Positions 5,607-5,686 of a stretch of 64,000 nucleotides of DNA are shown here, in pieces. The notes under the pieces are model-generated. The model made no database searches. It saw only the letters and a list, made by a program, of their open reading frames with translations, and was not told where the DNA came from. How positions within the stretch are numbered: position 1 is the stretch's first letter; every line of letters starts with the position of its first letter. Both the position numbers and the translations under genes were made by a program. The stretch lies in NCBI RefSeq assembly GCF_058153355.1, contig NZ_CM177019.1. One strand, given 5' to 3'.

Positions 5607-5633
5607 GTCTGATGCGCTACGCTTATCAGGCCT
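5607..5633. repeat. REP element (Y-type) carrying an unoccupied atcaggcct motif
   Basis: gtctgatgcgctacgcttatcaggcct. Confidence 0.8.
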
Positions 5634-5651
5634 GGAAAGATGCACAATCGA

Positions 5652-5686
5652 GTAGGCCGGATAAGGCGTTTACGCCGCATCCGGCA
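5652..5686. repeat. REP element (opposite orientation; BIME partner)
   Basis: gtaggccggataaggcgtttacgccgcatccggca. Confidence 0.8.

Follow-up and report, generated by a model that had tools for sequence, protein, structure and literature searches.

The window, a 64-kb stretch of DNA, is part of an E. coli chromosome, and its positions 5607-5686 hold a BIME (REP pair) in the intergenic spacer between yggL and yggN. The yggL stop and the yggN start flank the BIME, which is extragenic. The segment 5300-6000, which spans this yggL-yggN region, was found in 5,423 of the 5,426 complete E. coli genomes, while a 701-nt query carrying the BIME matched a median of 23 places per complete genome. The two REPs are imperfect palindromes, mutually inverted (that of site A on the plus strand and that of site B on the minus strand), with inverted-repeat arms and a stem-loop fold (z = -2.4). 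The features of the REP class, namely a palindrome of about 30-35 bp, an extragenic position, high repetition and alternating orientation, were all recognised at 5607-5686, and a search of Rfam over positions 5400-5900 gave no RNA gene at the gathering threshold. The sites named A, B and C, the REPs that carry them and the other features of the window are collected in Table 1.

Table 1. Positions of REPs, IS621 copies and scored 11-mers in the window, with true mismatches and wobbles relative to the guide
Feature	Position	Strand	Sequence or context	True mismatches	Wobbles
Site A REP	5607..5635	+	Z2-like, gtctgatgcgctacgcttatcaggcct followed by gg		
Site A	5625-5635	+	ATCAGGCCTGG	1 (position 11, rG:dG)	2 (positions 4, 10)
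Linker between REPs A and B	5636..5651	.	16 bp		
Site B REP	5652..5686	-	canonical Y-type, TGCCGGATGCGGCGTAAACGCCTTATCCGGCCTAC on the minus strand		
Site B	5662..5652	-	ATCCGGCCTAC	1 (position 4, rG:dG)	0
IS621 copy 1	13247..14526	+	1,280 bp counting one CT; in ATCGGGCCT/AC, REP between yggR and ruvX		
Copy 1, LTG-coding DNA	13310-13318				
Copy 1, RTG-coding GTAG	13338-13341				
Copy 1, recombinase ORF	13439-14419		326 aa		
Site C REP	26589..26624	-	Y-like, downstream of speB (speB-loiP intergenic)		
Site C	26599..26589	-	ATCCGGCCTAC	1 (position 4, rG:dG)	0
Partner REP of site C	26657..26690	+			
11-mer in partner REP of site C	26680-26690	+	ATCTGACCTAC	1 (position 4)	1 (position 6)
IS621 copy 2	29880..31159	-	in ATCAGGCCT/AC; LTG-coding DNA 31096..31088		
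IS621 copy 3	41775..43054	+	in ATCAGGCCT/AC between fbaA and mscS; LTG-coding DNA 41838-41846		
REP partner beside copy 3	43102..43092	-	ACCAGACCTAC; 40 nt from the right end of copy 3	0	3 (positions 2, 4, 6)

The REP of site A reads gtctgatgcgctacgcttATCAGGCCT at 5607-5633, ends in ATCAGGCCT and continues with GG at 5634-5635, as the original prediction had it, and matches the Z2 query printed in Durrant et al. at 26 of 30 positions. The REP of site B is a 35-nt element (5652-5686) that starts with GTAGGCCGGAT at 5652-5662, that is ATCCGGCCTAC on the minus strand. It is identical at 35 of 35 positions to the Y-type REP used as BLAST query in the Methods of Durrant et al. (PMC11208160), and 32 nt of it are identical to a REP between hypF and norW that is occupied by IS621. 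The same GTAGGCCGGAT, and thus ATCCGGCCTAC on the minus strand, recurs at 26589-26599, which bears out the earlier reading that the inverted partner and a REP near 26590 both differ from the occupied target by a single mismatch.

The window carries three IS621 copies, base-for-base identical and 1,280 bp each. The recombinase ORF is intact and its product of 326 aa, coded at 13439-14416 in copy 1, matched PF01548 (DEDD, RuvC-like) with 86.7 bits and PF02371 (Transposase_20) with 91.7 bits; homologous copies are labelled 'IS110-like element IS621 family transposase' in RefSeq. The junctions of all three copies read ...GGCCT/TGTATT...ACAGTATCT/AC, with the CT core at both ends, a donor junction ACAGTATCT/TGTAT and no inverted repeats. 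The flanks confirmed that ATCAGGCCT is the 9-mer occupied by copies 2 and 3 (...ATCAGGCCT, IS, AC), copy 1 being inserted in ATCGGGCCT, again followed by AC. All three copies carry the guides as published, LTG AUCGGGCCU and RTG GUAG. Alignment of the resident bridge RNA with the published 177-nt wild type revealed three differences (G60A, C65U and one inserted C), all confined to the LTG-RTG spacer, with the target and donor guides unchanged (13306-13341, and likewise in copies 2 and 3); the resident RNA is accordingly a predicted IS621 bridge RNA, as judged from the alignment of the left-end DNA. Every tested feature of an IS110/IS621 bridge recombinase element (domains, left-end guides and CT-core junctions) was found.

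The best match to this IS621 among the complete genomes was 99.6% identical, and none was identical to the resident variant. The cognate sites in the 64-kb window, ATC[A/G]GGCCT followed by AC, are all occupied (3/3), by identical copies within 30 kb. In the closest complete genome, NZ_AP027764.1, the REPs of A/B and of C are identical to ours and no IS621 is present across the corresponding 50 kb. At the site of copy 3 this genome has the precise empty target ATCAGGCCTAC, while for copies 1 and 2, whose surroundings were compared over 13188-13246 and 14527-14626 (copy 1) and over 29740-29879 and 31160-31260 (copy 2), the whole BIME is missing, beyond the IS alone. Three identical copies within 30 kb, none of them in the closest genome, suggest that the source strain has recently gone through a burst of IS621 or that the element has reinserted locally there.

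The block formed by copy 2 and its BIME is flanked on both sides by a terminator-like hairpin, GGGCCGCGAAAGCGGCCC. A marginal Rfam match to ES036/CssrF (29843-29886, plus strand; 40.4 bits against a cut-off of 37.6) overlaps the REP and the right junction of copy 2. The other Rfam matches in the window are a Sib antitoxin RNA (56286-56436, minus strand, 140.5 bits) and 6S RNA (57085-57268, minus strand, 138.1 bits).

Sites in the window were scored against the guide with the CT core fixed, and in a second ranking rG:dT and rU:dG wobbles were allowed. The motif ATCRGGCCT occurs seven times while 0.77 occurrences are expected from shuffles, none of the 100 shuffles reaching seven. Three of the matches are the left halves of the occupied targets, three are LTG segments inside the IS copies (LTG-coding DNA at 13310, 31096..31088 and 41838) and one is the empty REP of site A. 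This excess is far from chance, but only since REPs form a repeat family for which IS621 is programmed. No unoccupied perfect 11-mer was found in the 64-kb window with the CT core fixed, and the sole sites with one mismatch and no wobble are B and C.

In the published scheme of guide-target pairing, A is accepted at position 4 through a non-canonical rG53:dT pair (PMC11208158). When positions 1-7 were compared with the LTG, this rG:dT pair being allowed, site A (ATCAGGC) paired throughout while B and C failed because of the C at position 4. The CT core at positions 8-9 is present in A, B and C. The AC at positions 10-11, which pairs with U78 and G77 of the RTG, is present in B and C while A carries GG; the mismatch of site A and one of its wobbles both lie in the 4-bp right-guide duplex, of which the two core pairs remain.

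Two further 11-mers ranked close to these sites. The one beside copy 3, ACCAGACCTAC, has no true mismatch to the guide; it is unoccupied in the window and absent from the published natural-target set. The context of ATCTGACCTAC (26680-26690), in the partner REP of site C, corresponds with two single-base differences to a published natural IS621 target (seq689 in supplementary file 15 of Durrant et al.), and since this context is listed, the speB-loiP BIME has been hit in nature, though in the REP other than that of C.

Natural use of variant targets was analysed in metagenomes and in complete genomes. A scan of metagenome contigs with the first 31 nt of the IS621 left end gave 63 junctions with 30 distinct left flanks. 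Among these, 18 read ATCAGGCCT and one ATCGGGCCT (19/30 cognate) while two read ATCCGGCCT, one of them a canonical Y-REP with 32 nt identical to the REP of site B. The remaining flanks were single variants, mostly explicable by wobbles (ATCAGACCT, ACCGGGCCT, ATCGGACCT), and each of the six right flanks obtained starts with AC. For the complete genomes a query was used that joins a Y-REP to the IS621 left end; nine exact matches (65/65) and dozens of near matches were obtained, and 13 were inspected. IS621 with the canonical G-guide (ATCGGGCCT / GUAG) was found in Y-REPs reading ATCCGGCCT followed by AC at five loci, hypF-norW, yjgA-mpl, yahG-yahI, ppc-argE and msrQ-zinT, in all of them as a full-length element of 1,279 bp with normal CT junctions.

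The published target list for the guide ATCGGGCCTAC comprises 834 sequences, and one tenth of it holds at least ten ATCCGGCCTAC entries, although the counts of variants are inflated, some published 'natural targets' being chimeric or truncated junctions (seq297 for example). The contexts of the five loci are among the ATCCGGCCTAC entries of this list, and the use of the ATCCGGCCTAC class, to which B and C belong, by IS621 is genuine though rare. The sequence ATCAGGCCTGG of site A was absent from every published file of natural targets that was searched, the set of 834 sequences for the resident guide among them. Of 614 published entries containing ATCAGGCCT, 610 continue with A (AC 596, AT 11, AG 3), two with G (both GC), two with T and none with C; the two entries with T represent left-end sequence of the IS (TGTAT) and are no genomic targets. 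None of A, B and C is itself listed among the published natural targets, while the contexts of copies 1, 2 and 3 are.

The occupancy of A, B and C was then determined across the complete genomes with junction queries made of 200 nt of unique flank and 100 nt of the IS left end, coverage of at least 80% in one place being taken as an insertion at the exact point. A single 600-nt query joining the three hypothetical junctions was dropped: any junction of a REP with the left end matched all its segments, which merged into one place. IS621 was found at site A in 0/5,426 genomes, at site B in 0/5,426 and at site C in 0/5,426, figures that yield no rate. Of the two controls, the cognate fbaA-mscS site of copy 3 was occupied in 54 of the 5,426 genomes and the near-cognate hypF-norW Y-REP, which has the C at position 4, in 12, genome counts of this kind being confounded by shared ancestry. 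At the locus of site C only 4,096 of 5,425 genomes covered at least 80% of the intact-locus query; this low coverage is due to the polymorphism of the speB-loiP BIME and is uninformative on IS621.

Taken together, these results are very probably explained by ordinary BIMEs in which B and C are low-efficiency near-cognate targets and A is effectively no target. The likeness of the REPs to IS621 targets would arise because the 3' arm of the Z-type REPs is what the bridge RNA is programmed to recognise and this arm, except for one or two bases, is common to all classes of E. coli REPs. The excised circular IS expresses the bridge RNA and recombination takes place at the CT core; both steps are established for IS621 and would apply likewise at A, B and C. 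The occupied sites are expected to pair fully with the guides, ATCAGGCCTAC by means of the rG:dT wobble at position 4. In B and C a dG would face G53, an rG:dG mismatch midway along the 9-bp left duplex, and the resident IS621 copies could strike there occasionally and with low efficiency. In site A the left side would pair, but CTGG should leave the 4-nt right guide with only the two core pairs (U78:dG being a wobble and G77:dG a mismatch). The relative efficiencies, like the effects ascribed to the rG:dG mismatch and to RTG pairing at the three sites, are predictions from sequence.

That B and C belong to a usable class of sites follows from the five other loci at which IS621 with the same G-guide occupies Y-REPs reading ATCCGGCCT followed by AC. 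The REPs had been put forward as candidate future insertion sites; this can be kept, weakly, for B and C, and not for A, whose GG right target is absent from the natural targets. In the same way the counter-hypothesis that IS621 never sits at variant targets fails for C at position 4 and still holds for GG, with 0 entries for ATCAGGCCTGG. The comparison of occupancy across strains that the original prediction had proposed showed A, B and C to be empty, and the natural tests of target specificity expected from such sites had already been carried out at scale, in pooled screens and in an insertion map of BL21(DE3) (PMC11208160).

It is conceivable, though rather unlikely, that B and C are mainly cognate sites of other elements, that is of IS621 lineages with the left guide ATCCGGCCT or ATCCGACCT or of another IS110 member. 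Variants with LTG ATCCGACCT do sit in ATCCGACCT followed by AC (hemL-fhuB, L072) and in ATCCGGCCT followed by AC (mhpE-mhpT, L071), a variant with the ATCCGGCCT guide exists (L027), 376 complete genomes carry the variant class, in as many as 10 copies each, and the published data hold 245 targets for TBL ATCCGGCCTAC and 35 for ATCCGACCTAC. Since some of the Y-REP occupancy is due to these lineages with C at guide position 4 (L071, L072, L027), what can be concluded for the G-guide copies is weakened but not removed. On the contrary, no such variant is present in the window, where all three copies have the G-guide; the exact ATCCGGCCT-guide form was found in 10 complete genomes, and the annotation of the two copies inspected, L073 and L074, calls them truncated; a non-IS621 element with that guide was unmatched in the E. 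coli complete genomes; and an IS621-family left end of any lineage was found at B or C in none of the 5,426 genomes. This non-IS621 element, an IS110 member with TBL ATCCGGCCTAC from the published covariation file, had been considered as occupant of B and C and was rejected, having no megablast match in the E. coli complete genomes.

Some further observations were made on these lineages. The retargeted IS621 with ATCCGACCT or ATCCGGCCT guides also have a changed sequence flanking the RTG, CTGCGCGGTAG, and the truncated copies of the ATCCGGCCT form, L073 and L074, adjoin flhA. The znuB-ruvB BIME carries a 72-bp solo remnant of the IS621 left end without IS body in the metagenome loci L007 (7937-8008), L014, L040, L041, L049, L051 and L062, arranged in the order REP left arm (...TTATCCGACCT), IS nt 1-72 ending in the guide-coding ATCCGACCT, AC and REP right flank. 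This scar is consistent with a site-specific deletion that ran from the LTG-coding DNA of the element itself, which is a copy of the left target with its CT core, to the right-end CT. The published target entry seq663 of file 15 (GCATGCCGTATCGGGCCT/ACGTGAAC) looks like the same deletion event for the canonical guide.

A strict specificity of IS621, with A, B and C all unusable and their likeness to the targets due to the common descent of the REP classes, would agree with the emptiness of the three sites in 5,426 genomes and with the 96.21% of experimental insertions that fell at ATC[A/G]GGCCTAC in the BL21(DE3) genome-wide map of 173 sites, 144 of them in REPs (PMC11208160). It is nevertheless very improbable: the same assay gave 42 non-canonical sites (PMC11208160), and for the class with C at position 4 strictness is already contradicted by the five independent occupied loci, with their normal CT junctions and full-length elements carrying the G-guide. 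The idea that A, B and C will serve about equally well as future sites, merely not yet hit, is the hardest to credit, for although all three have the core-proximal bases GGCCT and lie in REPs, the known habitat of IS621, and the filled cognate sites of the window oblige the next insertions to use weaker ones, the right target of A is never found among natural targets, the pooled screens showed poor tolerance of a mismatch at each of the nine non-core positions and still poorer tolerance of double mismatches (PMC11208160), and the three sites are empty in the genomes in which the controls were occupied 54 and 12 times.

The reading of B and C as weak near-cognate targets and of A as effectively no target makes the window a clean natural illustration of three points, namely that the guide equals the target with the rG:dT wobble at position 4, that the 4-nt right guide is strictly required and that insertion at C in position 4 is rare. 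For annotation purposes, a hit to ATCRGGCCT in E. coli marks either a REP or the segment of IS621 that encodes the guide, and a real target is predicted only by the full 11-mer with AC. The rate of insertion at ATCCGGCCTAC sites, if measured, would provide one number for off-target models of bridge recombinases. More speculatively, and in our opinion with little likelihood, Y-REPs such as B and C might be a large one-mismatch reservoir whose leaky use by G-guide copies occurs often enough to select the changes G53 to C and G55 to A and so leads to retargeting from Z to Y, the strain of the window, with its cognate sites filled, being at the stage in which leakage is the main route of spread.

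Other insertion sequences are known to use REPs as safe intergenic landing sites, among them IS1397 and ISKpn1 of the IS3 family and ISPpu9 and ISPpu10 of the IS110 family in Pseudomonas. In IS1397 the REP is recognised by the transposase and insertion occurs in the loop, a mechanism unlike that of IS621, while the targets of the ISPpu elements are the Pseudomonas REPs. IS621 itself was reportedly shown to target REPs by Choi et al. in 2003. With REP targeting established since 2003 and the mismatch rules of the bridge RNA since 2024, the present finding is an ordinary one that follows published rules.

Within the E. coli REP/BIME families (Y, Z1 and Z2), the REP of B is a perfect Y-type one and that of A is Z2-like; the two are mutually inverted, separated by a short linker and intergenic as in other BIMEs. 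Relative to the REP consensus the tail of A is GG in place of AC, which puts site A outside the IS621 target set. The retargeted IS621/IS110 lineages with LTG ATCCGACCT or ATCCGGCCT (TBL bins in Extended Data Fig. 5a of Durrant et al.) insert in Y-type REPs like those of B and C; none is present in the window, for which they would matter only as alternative occupants in future. The near-cognate sites of the window differ from the cognate ones at positions that had already been screened for mismatches in the published IS621 work. The three resident copies have the same recombinase architecture, guides, CT-core junctions and REP targets (ATCAGGCCTAC, ATCGGGCCTAC) as the IS621 described by Durrant et al. 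2024 (PMC11208160) and Hiraizumi et al. 2024 (PMC11208158); the published lists contain none of the sites A, B and C, and the bridge RNA differs only in the LTG-RTG spacer (G60A, C65U and one additional nucleotide), the system being otherwise the same.
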